Shown here: positions 27,197 to 51,281 of the stretch, one piece after another
How the letters are laid out: every line of letters starts with the position of its first letter
Position numbering within the stretch: position 1 is the first letter of the stretch
Assembly: GCA_030619885.1 (NCBI GenBank)
Contig: JAUXAN010000004.1
Coordinates: 12,575-76,574 of the forward strand
Direction: 5' to 3'
DNA length: 64,000 nucleotides
From: a bacterium
GTDB lineage: Bacteria > Hydrothermota > DG-26 > JAUXAN01
Translations under genes and position numbers: made by a program
The notes under the pieces: generated by a model
Database searches by the model: none
Told to the model about the DNA's origin: nothing
The model's input: the letters and a program-made list of their open reading frames with translations, nothing else

Positions 27197-28123
27197 TTAG
27201 ATTAGGAAAAAATCTCTTATCAGGTCTTTCCATTCCTTTTCATCAATTTTTCGGAGTGTGCGTATAAGAGTGACATAACAACCTACTGAAACCCCGAGAT
27301 CACTCTCAATTCTGTGTGATAATCTATTTACTTCCTCCATAAGCCAATCCTTGGCTTTGTTTCCTTTCAAAAGCCCCTCCAAATCAACTTCAATATTAAA
27401 TGACTTTAATTCAAGGACCCACCCTTTCCCATAAGGGTCGGCATTTAATAAAGAACTGTCCTTGGAAAGCTCCTTGTTCATCTTCTTCACTGTACCATCG
27501 ATTGGAGAAAGTAGTTGAGCATTTCCCATCTTGCTCCTGACTTCCCAGCCAATTTCTCCTCGCTTCACTTCTTCTTTATGAACAAACTCTATCCCTTTTA
27601 TCTTCCCTAACAACCGTTGAGCAAAGTCATCCAATCCTATCCTCACAGTGTCTTCGTTTATTCTTCTAACCCAAGTGTGTTTCTTGTAAAAGTAGAGAGA
27701 ACCCGAAATTAAGAAACCATTCACTTTTATCCGGTTTACTTTTGTCATTTGAGCCAAAACTTTTGGATGCCCATAAATAGCATCTTGCATCATTTGGTCA
27801 TACTCACAGGAACCGCATTGATAGTTATTGGGGCAGAGTTTATAAGATACCTCTCCAACCAACATATATCTACACTTTCGTTCCAAAGCTGGCAGATTTC
27901 TCAACCGAGTAATAATATTAAACATCTCTGGTGTTTCCGCATATTTACCATTCACATCCATCAGAGATTGATTAAATTGGCACTTGGCACAATTGTAATT
28001 GAGAGTGCAAAGGCGATAAGAGATCACACCCAGCTTTACCCATATACATAGGCGTTCTTTACCAGGAAGCTCTTTCATTGTCTCCTTCATTGCTTTTATA
28101 TCTTCCTCTTTTGCAACAGTCAT
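27197..28123 (-). CDS. GcvH-like protein with two N-terminal Cys-rich repeats; lipoyl-Lys position not conserved
   Basis: 2x C-x12-C-x5-C-x2-C, then HTWV...VRIGLDDFAQRLLG...LSPIDG...NADPYGKGW. Confidence 0.8.
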   Translation of the reverse strand: MTVAKEEDIKAMKETMKELPGKERLCIWVKLGVISYRLCTLNYNCAKCQFNQSLMDVNGKYAETPEMFNIITRLRNLPALERKCRYMLVGEVSYKLCPNNYQCGSCEYDQMMQDAIYGHPKVLAQMTKVNRIKVNGFLISGSLYFYKKHTWVRRINEDTVRIGLDDFAQRLLGKIKGIEFVHKEEVKRGEIGWEVRSKMGNAQLLSPIDGTVKKMNKELSKDSSLLNADPYGKGWVLELKSFNIEVDLEGLLKGNKAKDWLMEEVNRLSHRIESDLGVSVGCYVTLIRTLRKIDEKEWKDLIRDFFLI

Positions 28124-28256
28124 TTTTTACTCACCTCCTTTGATTATTATTCATCTTCTTTCGCAACACTTCGGTACTGAAAACACTTAACAAAATCATC
28201 GCCTAATAAGAAAATAGCGTCTCCACAAAACATCCTTCTTACGATACTATGTAATG

Positions 28257-29200
28257 TCACTTTTTCCCCTGTCCAAATTCAAAGGTATCGATCGCATTTT
28301 TGACCACTGAAGCAGAGCGATCGAATGCTTCTTTCTCCTGTAAGGTAAGTTCGAGTTCGATGACTTTTTCTATTCCTTTGACTCCCAATTGTACTGGAAC
28401 ACCGAGACAGATATCTTTGTGTCCATACTCACTGTTTATATATGCAGGGCAGCATATAATCCTGTGGTCATTTCTGACTATAGCCTCAACCATCTCTGCG
28501 ACAGAGGCTGCAGGGGCACAGGATGCACTTCCGGTTTTCAAGTCCGCAACGATTTCTGCGCCTGCATTTCTCGTCCTCTCTATCAATTTATCTATCTTTT
28601 CTTTTGGGAGAAGTTCTGTTATAGGGATACCCTCTACCCTTGCATATCTCGGCAGAATGACCATATAGTCATGATGCCCTCCGAGAACAATTGCCGTAGT
28701 ATTGGCTGTAGAAACATTCAACTCCTCGGCGATGAATTCGCGTAGACGTGTAGAATCGAGGACACCAGCTACTCCCATAACTTTCGGGTTTGAAACCACT
28801 TGTCTTCAGCGTATAATAAGTAAGTGAATCAACAGGTTCGGTAAGAATTATGATAATCGAATTGGGTGCATTAGTGACTATTTCTTTGACGATTGAGCCT
28901 ATCACTTTAACATTTAGTTCGAGCAGGTCAAGGCGCAACATCCCTGGTCTTCTCATCTTTCCTGCCGCTATGGCCACAATTTTAGAACCTTTCGTATCTT
29001 TGTAATCATTCGAACCCTCAATAACTATCTATGTCATAACCCCTTATAGGTGCTGCTTCCATAAGGTCCAATGCCTTCCCCCTCGCTTTCCCCTTCACAT
29101 TATCAATCAACATCACATTGGCGAGTTTCTTCTCTGCTATATAGAAGGCTGTATCTGTTCCAACATTCCCTGCCCCTATTAAACTTACTTTCTCCATCAT
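28257..29200 (-). pseudogene. mdh: Malate dehydrogenase (LDH-like MDH) broken by two frameshifts
   Basis: three track ORFs join up: IGAGNVG; AGKMRRPGMLRLDLL; GVLDSTR, GGHHD, LKTGSA; ATAG duplication near 29025 and ~2-nt deletion near 28785. Confidence 0.85.
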
Positions 29201-29262
29201 CCACCTCCTGAGTTCTTTTTTATCTCTTCTATTGCAACCATCTTACCTCTCCCACACCAAAC

Positions 29263-32200
29263 TTACGATACTAAGCATGCTTTGACCATTTCAGAGATTT
29301 GTTTTGATTTAAATCCGAGTTGTTGCATTGCTCCTGATGGACAGGCACCCACACAACTCCCACAACCTTTACATAATGCTTTGTTGACCTGTGAAACTCT
29401 TTTCCTATCTTTTATAACAATCTCTAAAGCACCATAAGCACATACACTCTCACATACTCCACAACCTGAACAAATGTCTTCATTTACACTCGCAACAATG
29501 GCTTCTGCCTCGTACTTATCTTTTGAGATAATGGTACAAGCCCTTGAAGCTGCAGCGCAGGCTTGTGAAATTGTTTCATCGATAGTCTTTGGTGAGTGTG
29601 CCATTCCTGCTACGAATATTCCTTCTGTGGCAAAATCCACAGGCCGCAGCTTCACATGTGCTTCAAGGAAGAAGTTGTCGCTCCCTAAAGGCACTTTAAG
29701 TAATTTGGCAATCTCTTCATTACCGTGCTCTGGATGGATGCCTGCACTCAGGACGAGGAGATCCGCATCAATAATTAGCTGCTCCTTGAGAATTGGGTCA
29801 AGAAGGGATACTTTAATTGAACCATCTTGGACTATAAGCTCAGGTTTTTGATTCTCATCATAGCGGATGAAAGTAACCCCTCTGTCACGTGCTTCCCGAT
29901 AATAAATTTCACGCGTTCCGTAAGTCCTGATATCACGATATAAGATAAATATGTTAACTTGAGGATTGAGTTCAAGCAACTTGAGTGAATTTTTTATTGC
30001 CTGAGTGCAACATACCCTACTACAATAAGGATGTTCATTATCCCGTGAACCCACACACTGAATCATCACCACAGATTGGTAATTGTTGATTGGTGATTGG
30101 TGATTAGAAAGGAGTTCTTCCAGTTCGTGTTGTGTTATTACCTGGGTGTGCTTGTCATATAAATATTCATTGGGCTTGTATTCACGGGCTCCTGTAGCTA
30201 CAATTACAATACCGTGCTCTAATTCGTTATTCGTTATTCGTGATTCGTGATTCGTAGTGATACTGGTTTTGTAGTTTCCAATGTAGCCCTCGATGTTCTC
30301 AATACTTGTTCCTTTGTAAACTTTGATTCGTGGATGATTTTCTACCGCATCAATTAATGAGTCCAGGTATTTTTGAACATTCTCACCTTTGATTGTATAG
30401 TGCAGATTTCTCAGGTTTCCGCCAAGTTCAGATTCTTTCTCAACAAGAAACACTTCAAATCCTTGATTGGCAATGGATAAAGCAGAAACCACCCCAGCAA
30501 GTCCACCACCAATAATTAATCCCTTTTGTATCACATCAAGTTCTATTGTAGGCAGCGGTTCTAATAGTTTTACCTTGGCAACTGCCATTCTTACTAAATC
30601 TTTTGCCTTTCTGGTAGCTTCTTCTGGTTCATTCATATGAACCCAGGAGCATTGGTCTCTAATGTTTGCCATCTCAAAGAGATGTGGATTTAGACCTGCT
30701 TCCCTTATCGTTTCCTGGAACAGAGGCTCGTGGGTTCTTGGTGTACAGGAGGCAACAATTACTCGGTTAAGGTTATGCTCTTTTATTTTCTCCACAATTT
30801 TTCTCTGTGTATCTTGTGAGCAGGTAAACAGGTTTTCCTCTGCATATACGACATTGGGCAGAGTTTTTGCATACTCGACTACCAATGGCACATCTACATA
30901 AGCACCTATGTTAATACCACATCTACAGATAAAGACACCAATTCTTGGTGGTTTTCCTGTAACATCAATCTCCTCTGGGTATTCCTTCCTGGTTATCAAA
31001 GTATTTCTTGCAACTGCAAGTAGCGAAGCAACCTCGGATGCTGCACCTGATGCCTGAGTTACTGTCTCGGGTATGTCCTTGGGTCCCTGAAATACACCTG
31101 AGACAAATATACCCGGTCTTGAAGTCTGCGTGGGATGAAATTCATCAGTTTCACAGAAACCGTATTCATTCAGGTCAATACCTATTCTTTTACTCAACTC
31201 CATTGCTTCTTCTGATGGGACAAGTCCTACAGAAAGAACTACAAGATGAAATTCTTCTTGCTTAAGTTCTCCTTCTTCGGTTTCATACTTTAGATAAAGG
31301 TTATGGGTTTCTGGGTCTTCTTCTATAGATGAGATTCTTGCCCGTATATATCTCACTCCATATTCACTTTTTGATCTTTCATAGTATTTATCGAAATCTT
31401 TGCCATAAGCTCTCATATCCATAAAGAATATTGTGGGATCAACTTCTGGTGAGTGCTCTTTTGTAATTATTGCCTCTTTTGTAGCATACATACAACATAC
31501 TGATGAGCAATACGGCTTGCCTTTTCTATTTTCTCTTGAGCCAACACATTGGATCCAGGCGATCCTTTTCGGTGGCTTCTTATCCGAAGGTCTCAGTGTA
31601 TGTCCTTCATATGGACCTGCTGCTGATAGAATGCGCTCAAATTGCAAAGATGTGATAACATTTGAAAAGCGTTTGTATCCATATTCGCCTTTAATTTCAG
31701 GCGAGAATATTTGTGAGCCAAGCGATAGAAGAACTGCTCCTACTTCAATTTCCATGTCTTCTTCTACCATATCATGCAAGATTGCATCTGCTTCGCAATT
31801 CTTGACGCATTGGAGACATTCAGAACATACTCCACAATTAAGACATCTTTCTGCTTCTTTAATTGCTGTCTCTTTACTTTCATAGCCTAATTCAACCTTT
31901 TCCCAATCTTTGCGCCTTACATCGGGTGGCCGTTTTGGTAAATCAATCCTTTTCTCTTTCTTGACTTCCTTCTCTGGGAGTTCTGCTACCTTTACCTCTT
32001 TTTTTTCTCTATCAACCTTTATGTCTATTCCTTGGAGATACCTATCTATAGAGATAGCCGCCTCATGAGCCTGTCCTACTGCTTCAACTACTGAAGCAGG
32101 ACCCTTTACAATATCACCACCTGCAAAGACCCACGGAATATTTGTCTGAAGAGTAATTTCATCAACTTTGAATGTCTTCCATGAAGTGGTCTCCAGTTTT

Positions 32201-33711
32201 TCAAATCCAGTGAAATCTGGCTCCTGCCCTATAGCAATTATAATTGTATCTCCATTTAGGGTGGCATCTGTGCCTTCCTCAAGTTTTGGCCTAAATCTAC
32301 CTTGGGCATCAAACACAGAAGAGCACACCAATGTCTCGAGTCCTACAACCTTTCCGTCCTCACTAAAAATTCTCTTCGGGCCTCGACAAGGATGAAAAAT
32401 TACCCCTTCCTCATCTGCCTCTTCAATCTCCCAATTATGGGCAGGCATCCTATCTTTAGAAGATAAATCCCTTGTTTCAAGGCAGACAAGATGAACTTCT
32501 TTAGCACCCAATCTGAGGGAACTTTTTGCACAATCGATCGCTACATTACCACCTCCTATAACTATTACCTTCTCACCAATTCTTACTTCTTGCTTTGCCT
32601 TTACTGACTTCAGGAATGGAATCCCGTAGAGCACTCCATCGGCATCTGTGCCTTCAATAGGTAATCGTTTTGGATTCTGTGCCCCAATAGCAACAAAAAC
32701 TGCTTTGTATCCTTGATTTTTTATATCCTCCAGAGATAAGTTTCTTCCAATGGTAATGCCTGTTTTTAGTTCTATGCCGTGAGCAAGCATTCTCTCGATA
32801 TCATATTTTGCAATATCTTCAGGGATTCTATATTCTGGTAAGCATGATGTAATCATCCCTCCTGGTTTGCCCATTGATTCGAAGACAGTGACTGGGTAGC
32901 CTATTTTTAAAAGTTCAAGTGAACAGGCGAGTCCAGCAGGTCCAGCTCCGATGATTGCTATTTTCTCTTTCTTGTCAGGCTTTATTGGATTTACTGGCTC
33001 ATCTCCTTCGGTTCTTGCCCAATCACTCACAAACCTTTTTAATAGTCTGATTGCGATAGGTTCATCAATTTCTTTACGGTTACATTCTTCCTCACACGGG
33101 TGATGACATGCTCTTCCACAAACAGAGGGGAGCGGCATGTTTTCCCTTACGAGTTCTATAGCCTCTTTGAACTTTCCTTGTGAAATTAGTGCTACATAAC
33201 CTTGCGTATGGACTCTTGCTGGACAAGCATTTGTGCAAGGTGGCACCCCTGCTTTTTCTATAGCAAAGGCATTTGGCACAGCTTGTGGGTATAGCTTATA
33301 TATTGCCTTTCTCGTTGTAAGCTCTTGTTCGTATTCGTTCAACACCTCTACAGGACAAGACTCAACACATTCACCACAACCTGTACATTTGTTTATATCA
33401 ATATATCTGGGGTGTTTCTTTAACTTGGTTTTGAAATTACCTGCCTCTCCTGTTAGTTCTTCTACTTCTGCATTGGTTATGAGTTCAATGTTTGGATGTC
33501 TACCTGTGGCTACTAACTTTGGTGCAAGAATGCACATAGAACAGTCGTTGGTAGGAAAAGTTTTATCCAGTTGCGCCATTACACCACCAATGCTGGGATT
33601 CTTGTCCACAAGATAGACCTTGAAACCTGAGTCTGCCAAATCCAGAGATGCTTGAATGCCGCCTATCCCACCGCCGACGACTAATACGGCACCAACTTTT
33701 TTATTATCCAT
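29263..33711 (-). CDS. hdrA: Large HdrA-like flavoprotein (HdrL type: HdrA module + NfnB/GltD-like NAD(P)H module + second HdrA module)
   Basis: GGGIGGIQASLDLA, LDKTFPTNDCSMC, CGRACHHPCEEEC, IIGAGPAG, IQCVGSR, CSSVCC, LRPVDF, terminal ferredoxin motifs. Confidence 0.92.
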   Translation of the reverse strand: MDNKKVGAVLVVGGGIGGIQASLDLADSGFKVYLVDKNPSIGGVMAQLDKTFPTNDCSMCILAPKLVATGRHPNIELITNAEVEELTGEAGNFKTKLKKHPRYIDINKCTGCGECVESCPVEVLNEYEQELTTRKAIYKLYPQAVPNAFAIEKAGVPPCTNACPARVHTQGYVALISQGKFKEAIELVRENMPLPSVCGRACHHPCEEECNRKEIDEPIAIRLLKRFVSDWARTEGDEPVNPIKPDKKEKIAIIGAGPAGLACSLELLKIGYPVTVFESMGKPGGMITSCLPEYRIPEDIAKYDIERMLAHGIELKTGITIGRNLSLEDIKNQGYKAVFVAIGAQNPKRLPIEGTDADGVLYGIPFLKSVKAKQEVRIGEKVIVIGGGNVAIDCAKSSLRLGAKEVHLVCLETRDLSSKDRMPAHNWEIEEADEEGVIFHPCRGPKRIFSEDGKVVGLETLVCSSVFDAQGRFRPKLEEGTDATLNGDTIIIAIGQEPDFTGFEKLETTSWKTFKVDEITLQTNIPWVFAGGDIVKGPASVVEAVGQAHEAAISIDRYLQGIDIKVDREKKEVKVAELPEKEVKKEKRIDLPKRPPDVRRKDWEKVELGYESKETAIKEAERCLNCGVCSECLQCVKNCEADAILHDMVEEDMEIEVGAVLLSLGSQIFSPEIKGEYGYKRFSNVITSLQFERILSAAGPYEGHTLRPSDKKPPKRIAWIQCVGSRENRKGKPYCSSVCCMYATKEAIITKEHSPEVDPTIFFMDMRAYGKDFDKYYERSKSEYGVRYIRARISSIEEDPETHNLYLKYETEEGELKQEEFHLVVLSVGLVPSEEAMELSKRIGIDLNEYGFCETDEFHPTQTSRPGIFVSGVFQGPKDIPETVTQASGAASEVASLLAVARNTLITRKEYPEEIDVTGKPPRIGVFICRCGINIGAYVDVPLVVEYAKTLPNVVYAEENLFTCSQDTQRKIVEKIKEHNLNRVIVASCTPRTHEPLFQETIREAGLNPHLFEMANIRDQCSWVHMNEPEEATRKAKDLVRMAVAKVKLLEPLPTIELDVIQKGLIIGGGLAGVVSALSIANQGFEVFLVEKESELGGNLRNLHYTIKGENVQKYLDSLIDAVENHPRIKVYKGTSIENIEGYIGNYKTSITTNHESRITNNELEHGIVIVATGAREYKPNEYLYDKHTQVITQHELEELLSNHQSPINNYQSVVMIQCVGSRDNEHPYCSRVCCTQAIKNSLKLLELNPQVNIFILYRDIRTYGTREIYYREARDRGVTFIRYDENQKPELIVQDGSIKVSLLDPILKEQLIIDADLLVLSAGIHPEHGNEEIAKLLKVPLGSDNFFLEAHVKLRPVDFATEGIFVAGMAHSPKTIDETISQACAAASRACTIISKDKYEAEAIVASVNEDICSGCGVCESVCAYGALEIVIKDRKRVSQVNKALCKGCGSCVGACPSGAMQQLGFKSKQISEMVKACLVS

Positions 33712-33713
33712 GG

Positions 33714-34631
33714 CTAACTGCTAAACTTACACTGCTCATTTTGCATTGATTTCGTTTCTATCCTTTCAAGCAGGCTATCTGCTTTTACTTTGTTGAGATT
33801 AAATCCGAGTAGCTTTCGGTTGATTCCAAGTGCCAACCCCAGAAGCTGTGGATAATAAAGTACAGGTAAGTTGTAACTTGTTTGAAACTTTGTTCCAATT
33901 CGCTTTTGGTTTTCATCATACATTGCACCACAAAATGGACACATAAGGACAATTGCATCTGCGCCACTTACTTTCACACTATCCAACTTCTTTTGTGCTA
34001 TAGAGAGGGCGATATCTTCATTTATGGCTAACACACCAGCTCCACAACAATGTTCCTTTTCCAGATAATCAATAGACTTGGCAGCCGTTATTTCAATGAG
34101 TTCATCAAGTGAATGAGGGTTTTCAGAGTCATCATAATTGTCATATATATCTGATGGTTTAAGGTAATGGCATCCATAATGAGGTGCAACAGTGATACCA
34201 GATAGTTTCCTTTTTATCTTTGAACTTATCTTTTCGGATCCCAAATCTTCATGCAAAATCCTGATCAAGTGTTTTACTTTGATATTTTGGGCGAACCCAT
34301 ACTTGCCATCTTCCTTGCCCAATTTTGACAGTACTTTCTGTCTTGCCTTATCATTGCTTGCAAGATAGCGACTGACCTCTACTAAGGTCCCAGCACAGGC
34401 ACTGCAAAGCACACAGATATTAAGACCAGCATCTTCAGCAGCAATAAGGTTACGAGCTGCTATAAGAATGAAACTTTCATAATGCACGGATTTCACAGGA
34501 AAGCCACAACACTCAAACTCAGGTAAGTCAATAAGTTCGATTCCAATAGCTTCAGCTACCCTGCGGGTTGATAGCTCATAATTTCTTGCTTTAGTTGGTG
34601 CTGTACAGCCTAAGAATAGAGCATATTTCAT
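33714..34631 (-). CDS. hdrB: Heterodisulfide reductase subunit B-like (two CCG domains)
   Basis: FLGC, CCGFP, CSAC, HYGCHYLKP, CCGAG, CPFC. Confidence 0.9.
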   Translation of the reverse strand: MKYALFLGCTAPTKARNYELSTRRVAEAIGIELIDLPEFECCGFPVKSVHYESFILIAARNLIAAEDAGLNICVLCSACAGTLVEVSRYLASNDKARQKVLSKLGKEDGKYGFAQNIKVKHLIRILHEDLGSEKISSKIKRKLSGITVAPHYGCHYLKPSDIYDNYDDSENPHSLDELIEITAAKSIDYLEKEHCCGAGVLAINEDIALSIAQKKLDSVKVSGADAIVLMCPFCGAMYDENQKRIGTKFQTSYNLPVLYYPQLLGLALGINRKLLGFNLNKVKADSLLERIETKSMQNEQCKFSS

Positions 34632-41981: not shown

Positions 41982-42350
41982 CTACATATCTGTTGTATTA
42001 AGCATTTGATTGTCAATGTAACACACGAAGTTATTCTGCTTTAGTTCTTCCACCAATTTTCTGGTCTTCTCTTTTGAGTACCATGAGAGTCTGACTGGGA
42101 GATTCTTCAAATCCTTGCCAAGTTCCCTCTCAATTTCCCATACTGTCGGCTCTTTACCATCAAGAAGAAGTGCAGAATAACAGTTGGTTGTCTCTCTGAT
42201 TTTGAAAATTATAACTTTTGTGTCATCTTTTATCTCCATTTTTTCCTTATTAGCTTTTATTTCAGCGAAGATACGTAAAGAAGGGGGCAGGTCCTGTATC
42301 TCTGAAAAGGCAGCTAAATCTGCCGTATATGTATGTGAAAAGTTCTCCAT
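41982..42350 (-). CDS. Hypothetical protein, paralogue of 47328-47693, directly after mvhD
   Basis: 122 aa, AGAGGTG RBS; shares TADL.AF.E.QDLPPSL...DDTK...FKIR with its paralogue. Confidence 0.8.
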   Translation of the reverse strand: MENFSHTYTADLAAFSEIQDLPPSLRIFAEIKANKEKMEIKDDTKVIIFKIRETTNCYSALLLDGKEPTVWEIERELGKDLKNLPVRLSWYSKEKTRKLVEELKQNNFVCYIDNQMLNTTDM

Positions 42351-42778: not shown

Positions 42779-43314
42779 TTTAGTGCTGCATCTGTCATTG
42801 CAAAAAGTTGCTGGGATTTAAATCCGAGTTGCTGCATTGCTCCTGATGGGCAAGATGATACACAACTCCCACAACCCTTGCAAAGTGCTTCGTTAACCTG
42901 AGAAATTCTCTTGCCTTCTTTTAAAACGATTTCTGGTGCACCATAAGCACAAACACTCTCACATACTCCACAGCCTGAACAAATGTCTTCATTTACACTC
43001 GCAATAATGGCTTCTGCTTCATACTTATCTTTTGAGATAATTGTACACGCCCTTGCAGCAGCAGCTTTAGCCTGAGAAATACTTTCGTCAATAGTCTTTG
43101 GCGAATGTGCCAGACCTGCCAGGAAAACACCTTCTGTGGCAAAATCGACCGGTCTTAACTTAACATGTGCCTCTAAGAAAAATTTATTCTCATTCAAAGG
43201 AACCTTTAGCATTTGCGATATCTGGGGAGCATCAGTTCGAGGAACCATTGCAGGTGAGAGCACAACAAGATCTGGATTTATTACAAGATGGCGGTTTAGA
43301 ATTGGGTCTTTCAC
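42775..43314 (-). CDS. hdrA: C-terminal fragment of the frameshifted HdrL-type hdrA (continues 43323-47327)
   Basis: DPIL...DLVVLS...FFLEAHVKLRPVDF...CSGCGVCESVC; collinear with the C-terminus of 29263-33711. Confidence 0.85.
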   Translation of the reverse strand: MKDPILNRHLVINPDLVVLSPAMVPRTDAPQISQMLKVPLNENKFFLEAHVKLRPVDFATEGVFLAGLAHSPKTIDESISQAKAAAARACTIISKDKYEAEAIIASVNEDICSGCGVCESVCAYGAPEIVLKEGKRISQVNEALCKGCGSCVSSCPSGAMQQLGFKSQQLFAMTDAALK

Positions 43315-43322
43315 TTTTACAA

Positions 43323-46300
43323 CTAAATTGGTTTTTGATTTTTGGTTTTCGACGATAGCCGATCACCGATAACGGCTCGACTGAGCTCGCCGAAGTCCGA
43401 TAACCGACTTACAATTGGTTTTTCATCTTTTTCGTATCTAATGAAAATAATTCCATCATCTCGTGCCTTCTGATAATACTTTTCAAAAAATCCATAAGTC
43501 CTGACATCTCTGTGTAATATGTATATACTTACTTCAGGATTAAGTTCTTCCAATTTAAGTGCATTCTTAACAGCTTCCTGGCAACATACTCTTGAACAAT
43601 ACGGATGTTCATCATCTCTTGAGCCAACACACTGAATCATAACCACGGATTTCAGTTTTTGGATCTGAGATACAGGCTTCTTACCTTTTATTTCTAGAAT
43701 CTTCTCAGCTTCTACGAGTCTTTTTCCCAGCTCAAGCTGTGTTATTACTCTTGCATCCTCTCCATAGAGATATTCTTTTGGTTTTGATTCTTCTGCCCCA
43801 GTAGACACGATTACAATACCGTGCTCTAATTCGTTATTCGTTATTCGTGATTCGTGATTCGTAGTGATACTGGTTTTGTAGTTTCCAATGTAGCCCTCAA
43901 TATTTTCAATATTTGCTCCTTTATATACTTTGATTCGTGGATGATTTTCTACTTTCTCAATTAGCGAGTTTAAATATTCCTGTACATCATCTCCTTGTGT
44001 GGTGTAGTAAAGATTTCTTAGGTTTCCACCGAGTTCTTGTTCCCGCTCAACAAGTGTAACCTCAAATCCCTGGCGAGCAATGGAGAAGGCGGAAACCATT
44101 CCTGCAAGTCCACCACCAATAACTAATGCTTTTTGTATAACCGGAAGCTCTATCTTGGGTAATGACTCTAATAATCTTGCTTTTGTAACAGCCATCCTGA
44201 CAAGTTCTTTTGATTTTCTTGTAGCTTCCTCGGGCTCATTCATATGAACCCAACTGCACTGGTCTCGTATATTTGCCATCTCAAATAGATAAGAATTTAG
44301 TCCTGATTCCCTCAAAGTTTCTTGAAACAATGGTTCATGAGTTCTTGGCGAACAGGATGCAACTACTACTCGATTTAAATTATGCTCTTCTATTACTTGT
44401 TTCATACGCTCTATTGTATCCTGTGCACAGGTGAAGAGATTATCTTCTACATTTACTACATCAAGCAATGTTTTGGCATAAGCCACCACCTGTGGAACAT
44501 CTACAACACCCGCAATATTTATTCCACAGTGGCACACGAATACACCGATCCTTGGAGGCTCGTCGTTAACATCCCGTTCCGGTGGATATACCTTTTCAAT
44601 GACCTCTGTTCCCCGGACATCTGAAAGCAGTTCAGCTGCCGAGGCTACTGCCCCAGATGCCTCCATTACTGTTTCCGGAATGTCTTTTGGACCCGATGCA
44701 GGTCCACAGACAAATATTCCTGGAAGGGTTGTTTGTAGGGGAGAGAATACAGAAGTTCGGAAGAATTCATGGGCGTTCAACCTAATTCCAAGCTTGTCAG
44801 AAAGATCCGCAATTTTTTGTGAAGGCTTTAACCCAACGGAGAGAACTACAAGATCGAACTCATCTGCTAACTGTTTCCCATCTTCTGTAGTATAGTAAAC
44901 TAAAAGATTATTAGAATCTTCTACTTCTTCAATTTTCCCCACTCTTGATCTGATGAACCTTACACCATATTCTTGTTCTGCTCTTTCATAATATTTGTCA
45001 AAGTCCTTTCCATAAGCTCGAATATCCATAAAAAATATGCTGGATTCAATATCCTTTACATGTTCTTGGGTAATTATCGCTTCTTTTATAGCATACATAC
45101 AACAGACAGAGGAGCAGTAAGTACTATTCGATTCTTCGTCTCTTGAACCAACACACTGAATCCATGCTATTCTCTTTGGTTCTTTACTATCCGATGGTCG
45201 TAATATATGTCCCTGATATGGGCCTGAAGGAGCTAAAATTCGTTCAAACTGAATACTGGTAACAACATTTGGATATTTTTTATATCCAAACTCATACTTC
45301 ATTGATGGATCAAATTTATCTAATCCAGGGGCTAAGATAATGGAGCCGACATCGATATTTAGATGTTCACCAACCATTGAATGGGAAACTGCATCAGCTT
45401 CACATACTCTTACGCATTCCATACATTCAGAACAGAGGCCACATTCAAGACATCTCTTTGCCTCCTCCACTGCCATTTCTTCTGTAAATCCTAAATCAAC
45501 TTCTTCAAAATTCTTTATCCGTTCTTCCACGGCCAGCGTGAGGATAATCTGTCTCTCTTTTCTTTCTACAAATTCAGGGAACTGTTTTGGAGGAAGTTCA
45601 TCAATTTCCAATTCTCTTCCCTCTTTAAGGTCTTCGCCTCTTATGTATCTATCAATTGATATAGCAGTCTTGCGTCCAGTAGCTATAGCTTCAATCACTG
45701 TTGCCGGGCCACTCTCCACATCTCCACCAGCAAAGATACCTGACTCATCTGTTTCAAAAGTTTTTTTATTCGCTTTAATGGTCCCCCATCTTGTGACTTC
45801 AATGTTCTTATTACCTGAAATAAAAGATATATTCGGTTTTTGAGTTATTGCGTAAATCAATGCATCACGTTCTATTAAAAAATCTGAACCTTCTATCGGA
45901 ACTGGTCGCCTTCTTCCACTTGCATCAAGCTCACCCAGTTTCATTTTCGTACATTTAATGCATTTTACTCTCCCATTTTCACATACAATTTCACTGGGAT
46001 TAACGAGAAATATGGTATCAACCCCTTCTTCGAGAGCATTTTCAACTTCTCTATCCTCTGCAGGCATTTCTACTTTCGTCCTTCTATATAGGAGGGTCAC
46101 TTCACAACCCATCCTCTTCGCTGTTCTCGCAGCATCAATCGCCGTGTTTCCTCCTCCCACAACTGCTACTTTTTTACCCAGCTCAACTTTTTTCCCAAGA
46201 TTAACAGACCTCAAAAAGTCCACAGCATCCACTACTCCAATTCCATCGCATCCAGGTATGTCTGGTTTCACTCCTATATGCGCTCCCGTTGCAATATATA

Positions 46301-47327
46301 TCGCATCGTATCCCTCTTGTTTAAGGCGACCAATGCTATCTACACAAGTATTTGTTCTAATTTCCACCCCAGCTTTTTCGATTGCCTTGATTTCGTAATC
46401 AAGAATATCTTTCGGTAGTCTATATTCTGGTATTCCCACAGCAAGCATCCCACCTGGAACTGGTAGTTCTTCAAAAACGGTAACTCGGTAGCCCATTTTT
46501 GCTAAGAAATAGCCTGCTGTTAATCCAGAGGGTCCAGAACCTATAATAGCAACTTTCTCTTTTTTGGGTTCTGTAGGGAACAGGCATGCCTGTTCCCTAC
46601 CTTCGAATTCATCTTTATGTTGTATAACATAATCGGCAATAAATCTTTTCAGGTCTTTTATAGCAACAGGGCTATCATACTCTCCCCTTCTGCAATTTTG
46701 TTCACATGGATGAGTGCATATTCTTCCACAAACCGAAGGAAAGGGATTATTTTCTCTTATTAAATCATAGGCTTCCTTATATTTCTTTTCTTTTATGAGA
46801 GCAATATAACCCTGGACATGTACTCCTGCGGGACATGCTTGCTGACAGGGTGGCCTTTGTTTTTTGTCTATAGCAAAAGCATTAGGATAGGCTTGTGCGA
46901 AAGGTCTATATACTGCTTTTCGCTCTACGAGTCCCTCATTAAATTCAGAAACTGCTTCAATTGGACATACCTTTTCGCATTCACCACAGCCTGTGCACTT
47001 ATCGAGGTCGATAAATCTCGGGTGTTTAAAGACTCTTACATTAAAGTTTCCCGGTTTACCACTTACTTCTTCTATTTCAGAACAAGTTAAAAGTTCAATA
47101 TTGGGATGTCTTCCGCATTCAACTAATTTAGGCGCCATAATACACATTGCACAGTCGTTGGTTGGAAAAGTTTTATCAAGTTGTGCCATAGTTCCACCAA
47201 TAGCAGGAGAGTTTTCAAGAAGGTAAACCTTATATCCTGAATTTGCTAAATCGAGTGATGCCTGGATTCCTGCTATCCCGCCACCAATGATAAGGACGCT
47301 GCCAATTTTATGATTATTCTTTTCCAT
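43323..47327 (-). CDS. hdrA: Second HdrL-type HdrA, N-terminal 1334 aa, ending at a repeat-associated frameshift
   Basis: same domain order as 29263-33711; homology stops after FIRYEKDEKPIVS and a repeat-derived tail follows. Confidence 0.88.
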   Translation of the reverse strand: MEKNNHKIGSVLIIGGGIAGIQASLDLANSGYKVYLLENSPAIGGTMAQLDKTFPTNDCAMCIMAPKLVECGRHPNIELLTCSEIEEVSGKPGNFNVRVFKHPRFIDLDKCTGCGECEKVCPIEAVSEFNEGLVERKAVYRPFAQAYPNAFAIDKKQRPPCQQACPAGVHVQGYIALIKEKKYKEAYDLIRENNPFPSVCGRICTHPCEQNCRRGEYDSPVAIKDLKRFIADYVIQHKDEFEGREQACLFPTEPKKEKVAIIGSGPSGLTAGYFLAKMGYRVTVFEELPVPGGMLAVGIPEYRLPKDILDYEIKAIEKAGVEIRTNTCVDSIGRLKQEGYDAIYIATGAHIGVKPDIPGCDGIGVVDAVDFLRSVNLGKKVELGKKVAVVGGGNTAIDAARTAKRMGCEVTLLYRRTKVEMPAEDREVENALEEGVDTIFLVNPSEIVCENGRVKCIKCTKMKLGELDASGRRRPVPIEGSDFLIERDALIYAITQKPNISFISGNKNIEVTRWGTIKANKKTFETDESGIFAGGDVESGPATVIEAIATGRKTAISIDRYIRGEDLKEGRELEIDELPPKQFPEFVERKERQIILTLAVEERIKNFEEVDLGFTEEMAVEEAKRCLECGLCSECMECVRVCEADAVSHSMVGEHLNIDVGSIILAPGLDKFDPSMKYEFGYKKYPNVVTSIQFERILAPSGPYQGHILRPSDSKEPKRIAWIQCVGSRDEESNSTYCSSVCCMYAIKEAIITQEHVKDIESSIFFMDIRAYGKDFDKYYERAEQEYGVRFIRSRVGKIEEVEDSNNLLVYYTTEDGKQLADEFDLVVLSVGLKPSQKIADLSDKLGIRLNAHEFFRTSVFSPLQTTLPGIFVCGPASGPKDIPETVMEASGAVASAAELLSDVRGTEVIEKVYPPERDVNDEPPRIGVFVCHCGINIAGVVDVPQVVAYAKTLLDVVNVEDNLFTCAQDTIERMKQVIEEHNLNRVVVASCSPRTHEPLFQETLRESGLNSYLFEMANIRDQCSWVHMNEPEEATRKSKELVRMAVTKARLLESLPKIELPVIQKALVIGGGLAGMVSAFSIARQGFEVTLVEREQELGGNLRNLYYTTQGDDVQEYLNSLIEKVENHPRIKVYKGANIENIEGYIGNYKTSITTNHESRITNNELEHGIVIVSTGAEESKPKEYLYGEDARVITQLELGKRLVEAEKILEIKGKKPVSQIQKLKSVVMIQCVGSRDDEHPYCSRVCCQEAVKNALKLEELNPEVSIYILHRDVRTYGFFEKYYQKARDDGIIFIRYEKDEKPIVSRLSDFGELSRAVIGDRLSSKTKNQKPI
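46573..46600. repeat. 28-bp REP-like palindrome inside the hdrA reading frame
   Basis: identical to 24404-24431; translated as GREQACLFPT. Confidence 0.8.
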
Positions 47328-47693
47328 TTAATGTCTATATGGATACTTTTCGTTGTTGACTTTATGGTTCAGGAAATATGCAAATTCTCCCCGGCGAAAT
47401 TTCTCAAGAAGTTCTTTTAAAGTTTTTCTTGTTTCGTTTGAAAGTCTAATAGGTCCTAAATCTTTCTGGATTTTGTTTTCGACTTGCTCTATGTTCATAG
47501 CGTGATTAATAATAATTGCATGGCAGGAGTCTACTGTTCCCCTGATTTTGAAAACTATAAACCGTGTGTCTATTTCTACCTTAGTATCATCTTTCCAGCT
47601 TGCTGACTTGACAAATGAATATAAAGAGGGGGGTAAATCCTGTTTCTCTACGAAAGCAACAAGGTCAGCAGTAAATATATAATTATTGTCCAT
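47328..47693 (-). CDS. Hypothetical protein, paralogue of 41982-42350, directly after mvhD
   Basis: 121 aa; FTADLVAFVEKQDLPPSL...KDDTK...FKIRGT. Confidence 0.8.
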   Translation of the reverse strand: MDNNYIFTADLVAFVEKQDLPPSLYSFVKSASWKDDTKVEIDTRFIVFKIRGTVDSCHAIIINHAMNIEQVENKIQKDLGPIRLSNETRKTLKELLEKFRRGEFAYFLNHKVNNEKYPYRH

Positions 47694-47700: not shown

Positions 47701-48117
47701 CTATACTTTTAACTTTCCAAGTGAGCGTACCTCTTCAATAAACTCATCCATCACCTGCGTAAATCTTTTCCCCTCACTCGCGGAAATCCACTCGAGCCTT
47801 AATCGCTCGGGTTCAATCCCAAAATCTTTCAGTACTTGCTTCAAAAGAAAAACTCTTCTCCTCGTCTTATAATTCCCACTCTGATAATGGCAATCACCAG
47901 GATGACACCCACCAATAAAAACACCATCTGCACCTCGCTTGAACGCCCAAAGGACATGTTCTGGGTCTACCCTTGATGAGCACATAACGCAGATGGGGAT
48001 ACCATTTGGCAAATATTGCATCCTCGATGTCCCAGCAAGGTCAGCACCTGCAGAGGTACACCACTTACAGAAAAAGCAGACAATCCTGGGCTCGAAAATA
48101 TTAGATATTTTAGCCAT
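47701..48117 (-). CDS. mvhD: Second MvhD [2Fe-2S] subunit
   Basis: FFCKWCTSAGADLAG, MCSSRVDP, GCHPGDCHY, WISASE; ATG at 48117 preferred. Confidence 0.93.
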   Translation of the reverse strand: MAKISNIFEPRIVCFFCKWCTSAGADLAGTSRMQYLPNGIPICVMCSSRVDPEHVLWAFKRGADGVFIGGCHPGDCHYQSGNYKTRRRVFLLKQVLKDFGIEPERLRLEWISASEGKRFTQVMDEFIEEVRSLGKLKV

Positions 48118-48124
48118 ATTTTTA

Positions 48125-50086
48125 CTATGAGAGTATTGCATCTACCATCTTAAATATTTGGTTATCCTTGAAATTTCTCTGTTGGACTGCCGCTGACGGA
48201 CAAGCGGATATACATGAGCCACAACCTTCGCATAAAATCTCATTTACTTTTGCTATTCTCTTTTCATCTTTTATTTCTAATTCTCTGGCATCATAAGGGC
48301 ACAGTGGAACACATATACCACAGCCGCTGCACAAATCTTCATCTACAGCTGCTACTATGGGCTCATGTTTCAACTCCTCTTCAGCAAATAAATCAGTAAC
48401 CTTCGATGCTGCCCCAGATGCTTGAGCCACAGTCTCAGGAATATCCTTAGGAGCCTGTGTACATCCAGCAAGATAGAATCCAGCTGATATACTCTCTACT
48501 GGCCTTAATTTTGGATGTGCCTCATTCACAAATCCATACGCATCAGAGGGAATTTTCAGCTTACTGATTAAATCTTTAGCTCCATTACTTGGAACCATTG
48601 CCATCGAAAGAACTACCATATCGCATTCAACTTCAACCTGCTTTCCCAGAAGTGTATCTGCACCCCAGACAATAAGTTTGCCGTTACCATTTTTGAAAAT
48701 CTTTGATGCCTTTCCTCGGATATAGATTACTTTGTCTTCTTCTTGAGTTCTTGTAACGAATTCCTCATATCCTTTTCCTCCTGCTCTTGTATCGATATAG
48801 AATACTATAGCTTCACCGTCAGGAACTTTGTGTTTATATAGCATTGCGTGCTTTGCCATATACATACAGCATATCTTTGAGCAGTATGGGAGATGATGCT
48901 CTGTATCCCTTGACCCAACACAACTGACAAAGACTACTCTTTTTGGTACTTTATTATCAGAGAGTCTCCTGACCTCGCCACCAGTGGGACCAGTTGCAGA
49001 CAAAAGACGCTCAAATTGCATTCCATCCATTACATCCTCATATTTCCCGTTTCCATATTCGCCAATGTTCTTTGGGGAATACAAATCGTATCCTGTTGCC
49101 ACCACAATAGCTCCTACTTTTTCTTCTATTATTTCAGGCCTCATATCAAAGTCTATAGCCTGTGGTTCACAAACATCTGCACATTTACCACAGGCTATGG
49201 GTAAAAATCCTGGGCAGTGTTCAATATCTATTGTGTAAGTAGCTGGAATCGCTTGAGGAAACGGTAAATATATAGCCTTGCGGGCTGCAAGATTGTTGTC
49301 AAACTCACTGGGTGCTGCTACAGGACATACATCAACGCATTTTCCACAGAGATTGCACTTATCCTCAATTACATATCTTGGTTTTTTGAGAATCTTTACA
49401 TTGAAGTTACCTACATAGCCTGATATTTCCTGAACTTCGCTATACGCCAGAACTCGTATTTTTGGATGCCGTGATACTTCTACCATTTTGGGAGTCAAAA
49501 TGCATTGCGAACAGTCGAGAGTAGGAAAGGTTTCAGATAACTGAATCATATGACCACCTATTGATGGATTCCTTTCAACAAGTAAGACTTCGTATCCTGC
49601 ATTTGCAATATCTAATGATGCCTGTATCCCAGCTATTCCTCCACCTATAACAAGAGCTTGTCTGGTGACAGGAGTGCTGATCGGCTCGAGAGACTCGTTT
49701 TGATTTGCTTTCTCAACTATGGTTCTTATTATCTTTATAGCCTTGCGTGTAGCTTCTTCCTTGTTATCCTTATGAACCCAGCTACACTGCTCTCGGATAT
49801 TCGCAATCTCACATTGATATGGATTAAGCCCGGTTAACCGAGATAGGTCTCGAAAAGTAGTCTCGTGCAAGGTAGGAGAACAACAAGCGATGACTAGACT
49901 ATCTAATCTCTTCTCTTTGATAGTCTCCTGGACCAACTTCTGTCCTGGGTTAGAGCACACAAATATATAATCTTCTGCATGTGCAACTCCCGGGTATTTC
50001 TTAATAACTTCTACTACTTTTTTTACATCCACTGTTTCCGCAATATTTGAGCCGCACCAGCAGACAAAGACACCTATTCGTTTCAT
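48125..50086 (-). CDS. hdrA: Standard-size heterodisulfide reductase subunit A
   Basis: GVFVCWCGSNI, ACCSP, NIREQCSWVH, GGGIAG, ETFPTLDCSQC, CSKICC, HPKLRPVE. Confidence 0.95.
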   Translation of the reverse strand: MKRIGVFVCWCGSNIAETVDVKKVVEVIKKYPGVAHAEDYIFVCSNPGQKLVQETIKEKRLDSLVIACCSPTLHETTFRDLSRLTGLNPYQCEIANIREQCSWVHKDNKEEATRKAIKIIRTIVEKANQNESLEPISTPVTRQALVIGGGIAGIQASLDIANAGYEVLLVERNPSIGGHMIQLSETFPTLDCSQCILTPKMVEVSRHPKIRVLAYSEVQEISGYVGNFNVKILKKPRYVIEDKCNLCGKCVDVCPVAAPSEFDNNLAARKAIYLPFPQAIPATYTIDIEHCPGFLPIACGKCADVCEPQAIDFDMRPEIIEEKVGAIVVATGYDLYSPKNIGEYGNGKYEDVMDGMQFERLLSATGPTGGEVRRLSDNKVPKRVVFVSCVGSRDTEHHLPYCSKICCMYMAKHAMLYKHKVPDGEAIVFYIDTRAGGKGYEEFVTRTQEEDKVIYIRGKASKIFKNGNGKLIVWGADTLLGKQVEVECDMVVLSMAMVPSNGAKDLISKLKIPSDAYGFVNEAHPKLRPVESISAGFYLAGCTQAPKDIPETVAQASGAASKVTDLFAEEELKHEPIVAAVDEDLCSGCGICVPLCPYDARELEIKDEKRIAKVNEILCEGCGSCISACPSAAVQQRNFKDNQIFKMVDAILS

Positions 50087-50853
50087 TTATCTACAAATCT
50101 CCCCATTATGATTTTATCCTGAAGCCTGATATCTAAATTCTCTGTGGGTTCGCCATGTTTTATTACTGTGTTATTATGAAAGAATCTCATCCTATCTATC
50201 GTTTCCCCAATTTTCCCATCAGTTGCATAATACATTAAGCAAGGCGAAATGACTTCAATCACAGCAAGGCCCGGGTTTTCAAGAGCATCAGTTATAGAAT
50301 ACATTAACCTTCGGACATGGAGTGTTGTCCATCTTGCTACATACCGGGCACCACATAATTTTGCCAGATGAGGAATATTAAATGGCAGTTCAAGATTTTC
50401 ATCATCTAAAGTTCTTACAAATGGAGTTGTCGGGGTGACTTTACATTCCGAGATTATATAAATAAAGTTATTGATATATATCACAAGAAGCTCTACCCCC
50501 TTTTTCCCTGCTTCAATAAAATCATCTGCTCCGGATGCAATGAAATCAGCATCATTCAAGAAGACAACCACCTTTGTCTCTGGATTTTCAAGCTTAAACT
50601 TTACTGCACACTTAATTGCATTGTCATGACTCTCGTTGCAGCAATTAATCTTTAAGTAATCAGCAACTTTTCCTGTGCAACCAATTCCTGAACTGACGCA
50701 TACTTTGCCTAAATCAATCTTTACTTTCTCGAGCGTTTCAACAAAAGTATTGACGACTGTTCCAATCCCACACCCTGGACACCAAACAAAAGGGATTGAT
50801 CCTTCGCGAAGCAAAGAATCGATTGGATGAGTTCCTTCAATATTTTCTATCAT
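50083..50853 (-). CDS. 2-oxoacid:ferredoxin oxidoreductase beta-subunit-like protein with degenerate TPP motif
   Basis: WCPGCGIG, SSGIGCTG, INNFIY, PTTP, EVISPC kept; GDGD reads NDAD, GMTGGQ reads IISECK. Confidence 0.8.
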   Translation of the reverse strand: MIENIEGTHPIDSLLREGSIPFVWCPGCGIGTVVNTFVETLEKVKIDLGKVCVSSGIGCTGKVADYLKINCCNESHDNAIKCAVKFKLENPETKVVVFLNDADFIASGADDFIEAGKKGVELLVIYINNFIYIISECKVTPTTPFVRTLDDENLELPFNIPHLAKLCGARYVARWTTLHVRRLMYSITDALENPGLAVIEVISPCLMYYATDGKIGETIDRMRFFHNNTVIKHGEPTENLDIRLQDKIIMGRFVDK

Positions 50854-50889
50854 TTCTTCTTTTCTATCCCCGCCATAGGCGGGAGGGTT

Positions 50890-51159
50890 TTAGGTTAAAA
50901 CTTCAATTACTTCTTTCTCTTCTTTTAAAGTAGACCAAATTGCAAAATCTGGGCAAAGCATCTCGCATAATCCACAATTAATACAATTTTCTGGATTTTT
51001 AACCTCAGGAAAATGATATCCCTTAGTATTAAACTCATCAGACAACTCCAAAACATCCATCGGGCAATATGTTACACAGAAACCACATCCCTTACACCTA
51101 TCCTTTACTATGTGGATTTCCCCACACGGGGTTTTCATTCCATTATTAAAGAACTTCAT
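50890..51159 (-). CDS. 2x[4Fe-4S] ferredoxin (OFOR delta-subunit-like)
   Basis: CKGCGFCVTYCP and CINCGLCEMLCPDFAI; AGGAGG RBS. Confidence 0.9.
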   Translation of the reverse strand: MKFFNNGMKTPCGEIHIVKDRCKGCGFCVTYCPMDVLELSDEFNTKGYHFPEVKNPENCINCGLCEMLCPDFAIWSTLKEEKEVIEVLT

Positions 51160-51265
51160 CTCTCCTCCTATTTTTTTTTGGCGCCTCAGTCTTATAATTT
51201 TCTTTATATTTAAAATCCTGCAAATCTGCGTTCCTATTTTTAAAATGACTTACATATTACCTAAT

Positions 51266-51281
51266 AGCAGAATCTATGCCA
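51266..51281 (-). promoter_or_regulatory. Sigma54 (-24/-12) promoter for the hdr/lipoate gene run
   Basis: minus strand TGGCATAGATTCTGCT with exact GG-N10-GC spacing, next to a sigma54 activator gene. Confidence 0.75.

Follow-up and report, generated by a model that had tools for sequence, protein, structure and literature searches.

The 64-kb stretch of contig JAUXAN010000004.1 (assembly GCA_030619885.1)—hereafter the window—contains a run of about 20 genes, all on the minus strand at 27197-51159, which probably (we put the chance at roughly 0.55) encodes a flavin and iron-sulfur (Fe-S) bifurcating or confurcating machinery of the heterodisulfide reductase (Hdr) type, with the lipoyl group of a small H protein, designated here GcvH1, as its thiol/disulfide cosubstrate and with a coupling to 2-hydroxyacid dehydrogenases. 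That GcvH1 is lipoylated, which way the electrons run and which organic acid takes part are what we infer from the sequence, and a direct turnover of the lipoyl group at the HdrB and CCG-domain sites appears likely. The link between the carrier and the Hdr genes itself is well supported by comparative genomics.

In a preliminary description of this DNA, about 19 co-oriented genes had been placed behind one sigma-54 site, and the scans with Pfam and NCBIfam models recovered every gene named there, in the order given; what has to be corrected is that hdrL1 is split, that mdh is a frameshifted pseudogene and that two of the three H-protein domains lack the lipoyl lysine. The coordinates of all the features are summarized in Table 1.

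A putative lipoyl carrier and its ligase

Among the three H-protein domains of the run, GcvH1 is the only one with a lysine at the lipoylation position, and this residue aligns with the lipoyl lysine of GcvH from both Escherichia coli and Mycobacterium tuberculosis. Lys69 within the motif QS[AS]KWVGK is invariant among the 25 sampled members of the GcvH1 family, the mean column identity being 80%, and the subfamily—with 61-85% identity—covers bacteria as well as Thermoplasmata-type archaea. The homologues labelled Thermoplasmata, Euryarchaeota or Methanobacteriota (P0058, P0064, P0101, P0111, P0114 and P0116) are 67-73% identical to the bacterial protein, which suggests a strong constraint and/or inter-domain transfer. 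Concerning the remaining two domains, the one fused to HdrC has a glycine at the lipoylation position and the Cys-rich protein has a methionine there, with a lysine one residue earlier; the missing lipoyl lysine is conserved in both of these families. In another locus (L010), a Lys-bearing GcvH1 gene is located directly upstream of hdrC, where the run described here has an H fold fused to HdrC.

The host is represented by a draft genome of 2.46 Mb that is 97% complete; its closest matches at the protein level carry the labels Candidatus Stahlbacteria, WOR-3 and TA06. Since a canonical gcvH directly beside gcvPA (contig C37), a dihydrolipoamide dehydrogenase (Lpd; C28), LipA (C32) and a second LplA/LipB-type gene (C38) are all encoded elsewhere in this genome, the LplA and GcvH1 of the run appear to be an extra, dedicated set, for which lipoylation is predicted. 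The preliminary description had named gcvP and gcvT genes elsewhere, if they fully accounted for the H protein, as grounds for abandoning its proposal; here gcvPA has its own gcvH, and both GcvPA and Lpd gave 0 matches in 87 GcvH1 loci. Moreover, a sample of 151 genomes of the phylum has GcvP in 140 and a GcvH1-like protein in 29 of them, so that glycine cleavage does not need GcvH1. The idea that GcvH1-bearing genomes lack GcvP was rejected, all 15 tested genomes having it; the co-occurrence of the two is uninformative because GcvP is near-universal in the phylum. Rejected, too, was the identification of GcvH1 as LbpA: the protein has no N- or C-terminal cysteines (its only ones being Cys62 and Cys93), is acidic (isoelectric point 4.8; core 4.4) and passes the cut-offs for GcvH.

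It should be pointed out that orthologues of LplA (at least 45% identity) occur in nine other genomes, seven of which also have a GcvH1-like match. This enrichment counts for little as evidence, since close homologues of GcvH1 are in many genomes accompanied by another LplA-type gene, which is longer.

The enzymes around the carrier

HdrB aligns over its residues 1-291 with the HdrB of Methanothermococcus (5odc_B), the Cys, CC and CxxC positions being kept in both halves and all cysteines of both non-cubane [4Fe-4S] clusters retained. The protein of 352 amino acid residues (aa) with two CCG domains has as its best NCBIfam model the TfrB of thiol:fumarate reductase (173 bits, with a cut-off of 385). 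Because HdrB keeps its cluster cysteines and the 352-aa protein is TfrB-like with two CCG domains, the run appears to provide two active sites for disulfides, grouped about a single lipoyl carrier with its ligase.

The genes for the CCG protein and LplA form a conserved pair. The putative flavoprotein partner of the CCG protein, GlcD, is adjacent or fused to it in relatives and is encoded on contig C58 here; an 838-aa GlcD-CCG fusion in locus L055 has a CCG half that best matches the CCG protein of the window, with 55% identity, and a GlcD half that best matches the GlcD of C58. Both this fusion and that of the H fold with HdrC are in line with a link between carrier, CCG protein and Hdr. Both HdrL1 and HdrL2 contain Fer4_20 and Pyr_redox_2 domains at residues ~155-550, the arrangement by which HdrL proteins are recognized (Strittmatter 2009). 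HdrA, HdrC and MvhD are present as what seem to be divergent members, since their scores all fall under the NCBIfam equivalog cut-offs.

Conserved gene neighbourhoods

A scan of metagenome contigs yielded 80 loci anchored on GcvH1, 79 of them scorable, which were annotated by tblastn. The neighbourhoods of seven members from different lineages share a GlcD-type FAD dehydrogenase, the 352-aa CCG protein, LplA, HdrC, HdrB, HdrL/HdrA, MvhD and GcvH1; GlcD is often accompanied by LarA, Ldh/Mdh, class-I fumarase, malic enzyme or phosphoenolpyruvate carboxykinase (PEPCK), OsmC is present sometimes, and HdrL/HdrA carries a GltD-like, a NuoEF-like or a [NiFe]-hydrogenase module. Almost the whole set is combined in a single operon of 16 kb (L137), which comprises REC-REC, REC-GcvH-HdrC, HdrB, HdrA with NuoEF-like parts, MvhD, GcvH1, GlcD, FumAB, CCG and LplA, another one (L052/L053) consists of malic enzyme, CCG, LplA, HdrC, HdrB, OsmC, HdrL, MvhD and GcvH1, and an archaeal form is found in L051. 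The expectation that the gene set is conserved together was thereby borne out, the order of Hdr, CCG, ligase and carrier genes recurring in both bacteria and archaea.

An Hdr-family or lactate/malate-module gene is located within 6 kb of GcvH1 in 70 of the 79 metagenome loci. On the upstream side, the immediate neighbour is most commonly OsmC or MvhD; on the downstream side, it is LarA, GlcD or fumarase. All 17 loci with at least 4 kb of sequence on both sides have an Hdr or dehydrogenase gene within 8 kb (Hdr in 10, dehydrogenase in 14); as baselines, only 15%, 6% and 18% of the genome studied here lies that near such matches. In the 87 loci, GcvH1 neighbours HdrA/HdrL-MvhD genes (with or without a [NiFe] hydrogenase), LarA-GlcD-CCG genes of a 2-hydroxyacid dehydrogenase, or OsmC.

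As regards the variation of the HdrL module, the close relative in L137 (3360-9545) has its NAD(P)H module replaced by NuoE-like, NuoF-like and NuoG-N-terminal domains that are fused to HdrA or flank it, its operon being otherwise the same.

A proposed electron shuttle and its energetics

In the mechanism proposed here, LplA would lipoylate Lys69 of GcvH1, and the lipoyl disulfide/dithiol would be turned over at two CCG-type sites, i.e. at HdrB (together with HdrC) and at the TfrB/HdrD-like CCG protein. HdrBC would exchange electrons, in either direction, with the HdrA-type flavin of HdrL2, which bears an NfnB/GltD-type NAD(P)H module as well as ferredoxin-type domains, while the sets ferredoxin/OFOR-beta-like/HdrA/MvhD and HdrL1/MvhD/FrhB-like could be additional modules for the entry or exit of electrons. 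The CCG protein would connect the carrier to a GlcD-type 2-hydroxyacid dehydrogenase, fed by LarA, Ldh/Mdh, fumarase and PEPCK. The reversible net reaction would be: lactate or malate + reduced ferredoxin + 2 NAD(P)+ <-> pyruvate or oxaloacetate + oxidised ferredoxin + 2 NAD(P)H.

The relevant potentials are -320 mV for NAD(P)H, -190 mV for the pyruvate couple, about -170 to -190 mV for the lactate/malate couples, and -420 mV or lower for ferredoxin. Lipoamide has an E0' of -290 mV (PMC6067878), compared with -140 mV for the heterodisulfide of coenzymes M and B, CoM-S-S-CoB (PMC5861303). Lying barely above NAD(P)H, lipoamide would give almost no driving force for the reduction of ferredoxin from NAD(P)H, and it is far more negative than pyruvate and CoM-S-S-CoB, which are known as acceptors powering ferredoxin reduction (PMC5861303). 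With the 2-hydroxyacid dehydrogenase module, however, the energy balance closes, because lactate or malate together with reduced ferredoxin can reduce two NAD(P)+, and since it closes only with this conserved module, the carrier is read as a shuttle from the CCG protein to HdrBC and HdrL. The preliminary description had also suggested the lipoyl carrier as a possible substrate of HdrB and the CCG protein, which holds insofar as a dedicated carrier and ligase are tied to Hdr/CCG genes, the turnover itself being a prediction; it had, however, missed the partner module of LarA, GlcD, Ldh/Mdh, fumarase and malic enzyme, with its couple at -170 to -190 mV.

With regard to other disulfides, DsrC was absent from the 97%-complete genome, and CoM-S-S-CoB is an unlikely substrate in a bacterial host whose genes in the window include none for methanogenesis (genes of CoM/CoB biosynthesis were not searched for).

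A broader reading is conceivable, although we hold it tentatively and would not favour it as it stands: lipoyl-GcvH1 could be a general protein-borne "heterodisulfide" of non-methanogenic anaerobes, a single swinging-arm carrier charged by a ligase of its own and shuttling electron pairs between HdrB-type and HdrD/TfrB-type CCG sites and joining NAD(P)H, hydrogenase or ferredoxin modules with 2-hydroxyacid/fumarate oxidoreductases and also with OsmC-type peroxidases. The Lys-less H domain that follows a receiver domain and is fused to HdrC would, as part of the same reading, be a phosphorylation-controlled pseudo-substrate or a docking module.

Alternative explanations

The scheme put forward in the preliminary description, in which HdrL/HdrBC bifurcates the electrons of NAD(P)H to ferredoxin and to the lipoyl disulfide as terminal high-potential acceptor, is in keeping with the GltD/NfnB-type insert of HdrL, with the adjacency of HdrB, HdrC, carrier and ligase, and with the window itself encoding no dehydrogenase partner. 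It fails on the potentials given above: the known acceptors of such bifurcations are at -200 mV or higher, the averaged potential of ferredoxin and lipoamide is more negative than that of NAD(P)H, and relatives regularly add a GlcD/CCG or another dehydrogenase module, all of which makes it improbable. An antioxidant system, in which GcvH1 would be held reduced, as the dihydrolipoyl form, by Hdr modules drawing on NAD(P)H, ferredoxin or H2 and would in turn reduce lipoyl-dependent peroxidases, is about as improbable. Ohr/OsmC and AhpD are reduced by lipoylated proteins, and relatives do have such genes at the right place—OsmC is immediately upstream of GcvH1 in 15 of the 56 loci whose sequence extends far enough in that direction, and 25 of 79 loci have it within 6 kb; it lies between hdrB and hdrL in L050 and L052 and either there or directly beside GcvH1 in L053 and L054, and an AhpD-like CMD gene is situated between lplA and gcvH1 in L050, L058 and L059. 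The genome studied here, however, gave no OsmC or AhpD-like (CMD) match when the queries were run at E 1e-8, GcvH1 is linked to dehydrogenases no less often than to OsmC, and a 24-kb bifurcating apparatus with a Cache-kinase/sigma-54 switch appears catabolic; an antioxidant role could nevertheless coexist with the shuttle. The OsmC and AhpD-like neighbours in relatives would also suit the shuttle, as they fit with a redox-active carrier.

Sulfur trafficking of the sHdr-LbpA kind, with the carrier handling sulfane sulfur or persulfides, has as its precedent that sHdr requires lipoylated LbpA and a dedicated ligase (PMC6067878), and clusters of DsrE-TusA-MvhD-HdrA adjoin GcvH1 in L056, L074 and L110, one being present on contig C29 of this genome, too. 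Nevertheless, the window contains neither DsrE, TusA nor rhodanese and does not have the hdrC1B1A-hyp-hdrC2B2 layout, GcvH1 is missing the cysteines typical of both ends of LbpA, and the context, which includes MvhD and NAD(P)H modules, is that of an anaerobic fermenter, so that this reading has the least in its favour and is very improbable. Finally, the association may be a coincidence, GcvH1 and LplA serving glycine cleavage or general lipoylation and the Hdr proteins using another substrate or none, in a mosaic and partly decayed run. The score of GcvH1 above the TIGR00527 cut-off, the presence of GcvP in all 15 of the GcvH1-bearing genomes tested, the three lesions described below and the many relatives without GcvH at the Hdr core would fit with it, but GcvP is found so widely in the phylum (140 of 151) that its co-occurrence says nothing, neither GcvP nor Lpd is ever adjacent in the 87 loci, the canonical gcvH stands beside gcvPA in this genome, and the order with the Hdr/CCG genes is conserved in bacteria and archaea; we consider such a coincidence distinctly improbable. 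The shuttle between CCG and HdrBC sites explains the conserved order of Hdr, CCG, ligase and carrier genes better than the antioxidant, sulfur or coincidence explanations.

Several points nevertheless weigh against the shuttle. Its weakest one is the step from the dehydrogenase to the carrier, which is uphill at standard potentials, lipoamide lying ~100 mV below lactate/pyruvate; this may be eased by a tuning of the potential by the protein or by a tight coupling of the steps. Other contigs encode GlcD, LarA, Ldh/Mdh and fumarase, the dehydrogenase link thus running here via homology to relatives only, and the counted loci are phylogenetically non-independent. Many WOR-3-type relatives have the core of REC-histidine kinase, REC-REC, HdrCB, HdrL and MvhD with no GcvH or LplA nearby, GcvH1 scores above the GcvH cut-offs (TIGR00527, 122.5 vs 115.85; NF002270, 133 vs 117), and MetFV-HdrABC-MvhD illustrates that bacterial Hdr modules can serve non-disulfide substrates (PMC5861303). 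With hdrL1 split and with mdh and part of the Cys-rich gene decayed, part of the run may, moreover, be non-functional.

Relation to known systems

By its gene content, the run appears to be neither an sHdr-LbpA system nor a methanogen Hdr nor part of glycine cleavage. It shares with sHdr-LbpA (Hyphomicrobium denitrificans, Thioalkalivibrio, Aquifex and Sulfolobaceae; Cao et al. 2018, PMC6067878) a lipoyl carrier with the conserved lysine and a dedicated ligase near HdrB/C/A-like genes, as well as a separate canonical lipoylation route and GcvH in the same genome. It differs in having one hdrCB pair and no sulfur transferases, a carrier without terminal cysteines that scores as GcvH, partners such as MvhD, HdrL with the NAD(P)H insert, the FrhB-like protein and 2-hydroxyacid dehydrogenase modules, and an anaerobic host of the WOR-3/Stahlbacteria type. 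With MvhADG-HdrABC (Wagner et al. 2017) and HdrA2B2C2 (Yan et al. 2017, PMC5296606) it has in common an HdrB with all cluster cysteines as well as HdrC, HdrA and MvhD, and bifurcation at HdrA is expected; unlike in methanogens, the host is a bacterium, no hydrogenase is encoded in the run (there is one on contig C18), HdrA is expanded to HdrL with a GltD/NfnB insert, and HdrC forms one polypeptide with REC and an H fold.

The large HdrL with NAD(P)H-binding domains, MvhD, HdrBC and Fe-S partners are also found together in Desulfobacterota clusters (Desulfobacterium autotrophicum, PMC2702500; Syntrophobacter fumaroxidans Sfum_0819-0824, PMC5947623), which are uncharacterised and for which confurcation has been proposed; their proposed disulfide is DsrC, whereas here there is no DsrC but a lipoyl carrier with its ligase. 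In the GlcD/HdrD "lactate:heterodisulfide" modules of Bathyarchaeia, Methanomethylicia and Korarchaeia (PMC10667645), a GlcD-type flavoprotein similarly adjoins HdrABC/MvhD together with a CCG subunit resembling HdrD; the disulfide partner in non-methanogens is called "puzzling" there. In one paragraph, Kohtz et al. (2022; PMC9723716) suggested that GcvH in the Ehe-Hdr hydrogenase cluster of Culexarchaeia might hold the disulfide for HdrB. In comparison with these archaeal clusters, the carrier described here has its own ligase and forms a distinct conserved subfamily, with ~90 loci, in bacteria too, GlcD being unlinked in this genome. As to the net reaction, Ldh-EtfAB (LctBCD) of Acetobacterium woodii (Weghoff et al. 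2015, in PMC5861303) converts lactate + reduced ferredoxin + 2 NAD+ to pyruvate + 2 NADH; the likeness is functional only, since that system uses Etf rather than Hdr machinery and is without lipoyl carrier or CCG proteins. The preliminary description knew of no characterised complex of this composition, and indeed no paper was found on the carrier subfamily, its ligase or the operon, nor did the literature search for a described LarA/GlcD/Hdr/GcvH system give a match; the idea as such had, however, been raised by Kohtz et al.

Genes of the HdrABC/MvhD and HdrD/GlcD types are common in bacteria and archaea without CoM or CoB, and DsrC has been proposed only for sulfate reducers. A carrier with its own ligase, conserved beside Hdr/CCG enzymes in many phyla, is a concrete candidate for the disulfide that can be expressed and assayed. 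If the reading is true, lipoate biology would extend beyond 2-oxoacid dehydrogenases, glycine cleavage and sHdr, fermenters and syntrophs would have a new route for oxidising lactate or malate by ferredoxin-assisted confurcation, and the labels "glycine cleavage H protein" and "heterodisulfide reductase" in metagenomes would need to be re-read.

Organization and regulation of the gene run

Directly after the terminator of the NtrC-type gene, TGGCATAGATTCTGC represents a sigma-54 -24/-12 promoter, which is the sole match in the window to the strict pattern TGGCA[CT]N5[TC]TGC[ATC]. With the -24 GG and -12 GC elements, the neighbouring gene of an enhancer-binding protein and rpoN encoded in the genome, the run has the make-up of a sigma-54-dependent operon; sigma-54 sites between kinase/activator genes and Hdr genes are found also in the related loci L009, L014, L017 and L018. 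Because the run itself contains no convincing minus-strand terminator and no second strict sigma-54 site, one long transcript over its 24 kb is plausible; further sigma-54 or sigma-70 promoters were sought in the gaps of 109 and 74 nucleotides (nt), where nothing convincing was found. The Cache-type kinase and the NtrC-type activator would turn the run on via sigma-54, and the REC proteins within it, including the REC domain fused to HdrC, would probably adjust the activity. The genes flanking the run have functions unrelated to it. In agreement with the preliminary description, domain scans of the rest of the window found no gcvP/T/L, hydrogenase or sulfur-oxidation genes.

Table 1 Features of the gene run and its control region (positions within the window)
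Feature	Position	Strand	Basis
Sensor histidine kinase (sCache_3 / Cache_3-Cache_2, HAMP, HisKA, HATPase)	52979..54952	-	Pfam; orthologues flank Hdr clusters in related loci
NtrC-type sigma-54 activator (REC, Sigma54_activat, HTH_8)	51398..52786	-	Pfam
Intrinsic terminator of the NtrC-type regulator gene, 14-bp stem + T run	51295..51326	-	
Sigma-54 -24/-12 promoter	51267..51281	-	strict pattern
2x[4Fe-4S] ferredoxin	50890..51159	-	Pfam Fer4
OFOR-beta-like Fe-S protein, degenerate TPP motif	50083..50853	-	TPP_enzyme_C 8e-11; NCBIfam OGOR-beta 148 bits (cut-off 364)
HdrA, 653 aa	48125..50086	-	NCBIfam HdrA2 826 bits; Pfam
MvhD	47701..48141	-	FlpD 1e-51
DUF749 small protein	47328..47693	-	PF05370
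HdrL1: HdrA-type + GltD/NfnB-like NAD(P)H insert	42775..47327	-	Pfam; open reading frames 43323-47327 (1334 aa) and 42775-43314 (179 aa)
MvhD	42353..42778	-	FlpD 2e-56
DUF749 small protein	41982..42350	-	PF05370
FrhB/FdhB-like flavo-Fe-S protein	40739..42016	-	FrhB_FdhB_N + _C; NCBIfam frhB 186 bits, under cut-off
REC-histidine kinase	39475..40629	-	Pfam
REC-REC protein, no output domain	38612..39400	-	Pfam
HdrD/TfrB/GlcF-like protein, 352 aa, 2x[4Fe-4S] + two CCG domains	37504..38562	-	Fer4_8 + 2xCCG (Pfam)
LplA: catalytic domain + LplB-like C-terminal domain	36443..37507	-	Pfam, NCBIfam
GcvH1, 142 aa, predicted lipoyl carrier, Lys69 in QSAKWVGK	35991..36419	-	Pfam, alignment
REC - H-protein fold without Lys - HdrC fusion	34639..35961	-	Pfam; NCBIfam HdrC 117 bits
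HdrB	33714..34631	-	full-length match to 5odc_B, E 3.5e-67; CCG twice (Pfam)
HdrL2, 1482 aa: two HdrA-type modules + GltD/NfnB-like NAD(P)H insert	29263..33711	-	Pfam
Malate/lactate dehydrogenase (mdh) pseudogene	28260..29197	-	reads in three frames
Cys-rich H-fold protein, 2 x Cys4, no lipoyl Lys	27197..28123	-	Pfam, alignment

Concerning the promoter-proximal part of the run, the trio of ferredoxin, OFOR-beta-like protein and HdrA adjoins GcvH1 in five loci (L070, L076, L078, L106 and L114), and the order FrhB-like-MvhD-OsmC-GcvH1 is found in L054. The OFOR-beta-like protein keeps the cluster cysteines (WCPGC, GIGC and SPC) and has NDA instead of GDG in the TPP/Mg motif; no alpha or gamma subunit gene is located nearby, and a second copy of the set is present on contig C61. 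In loci of the WOR-3 type, the REC-histidine kinase gene occupies a conserved first place in the Hdr clusters. The two DUF749 paralogues, each located after an mvhD gene, are 33% identical to each other, and the sole solved relative is MTH1880 (1iqo), a weak PDB match with E 0.09. The MTH1880 gene is presumably next to hdrCB in Methanothermobacter.

At the distal end of the run, the family of the Cys-rich H-fold protein recurs in L140, a locus of the Syntrophobacteraceae type, where its gene follows a kinase/NtrC pair and directly precedes HdrL-MvhD. In the AlphaFold2 model of the protein, the predicted local distance difference test (pLDDT) is <50 over residues 1-116.

Lesions in the run

The hdrL1 gene is disrupted by ~65 extra nt, measured relative to the paralogue, between conserved residues (~43335-43412), which shift the frame and leave the last 179 residues as a separate GTG-started open reading frame. 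The insert holds a 48-nt core (TCGGTTATCGG...GTGATCGG) that recurs on contig C60 at 96% identity, 26 nt of it being present also on C5. Repeats of AAAACCAATT flank an interval of 87 nt in hdrL1; an excision between the two AAAACCAATT copies was considered as a repair and rejected, the 87 nt being in frame so that the reading frame is not restored.

The mdh pseudogene reads in three frames and has therefore two frameshifts; its C-terminal 167 residues are 91% identical to an intact paralogue on C7, and it gives the impression of a leftover from the linked gene order found in L050. In its closest homologues, the Cys-rich protein begins with an N-terminal Cys domain of 60 aa, of which an out-of-frame remnant with stops is found here at 28126-28221; the C-terminus of the protein reads VGCYVT, that of the family VADGG. 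These lesions may be real decay or errors of the metagenome-assembled genome, the assembly of which may be faulty.

Other features of the genome

At least five further Hdr-type clusters are encoded on contigs C14, C18 (with a [NiFe] hydrogenase), C29 (with DsrE-TusA), C60 and C61, the DsrE-TusA-MvhD-HdrA cluster of C29 being located at ~33900-35000. The dehydrogenase genes are scattered, with GlcD-PEPCK on C58, two Ldh/Mdh and LarA on C7 and fumarase on C60. On C32 (~13300-15567), the rpoN gene (a 469-aa frame) ends at the start of lipA, the sigma-54 gene thus abutting that of lipoyl synthase. A second GDC-P match, probably gcvPB, is on C36, with gcvT not adjacent, and the canonical gcvH-gcvPA on C37 has beside it, at 3995-4654, a gene resembling REP-associated tyrosine transposases.

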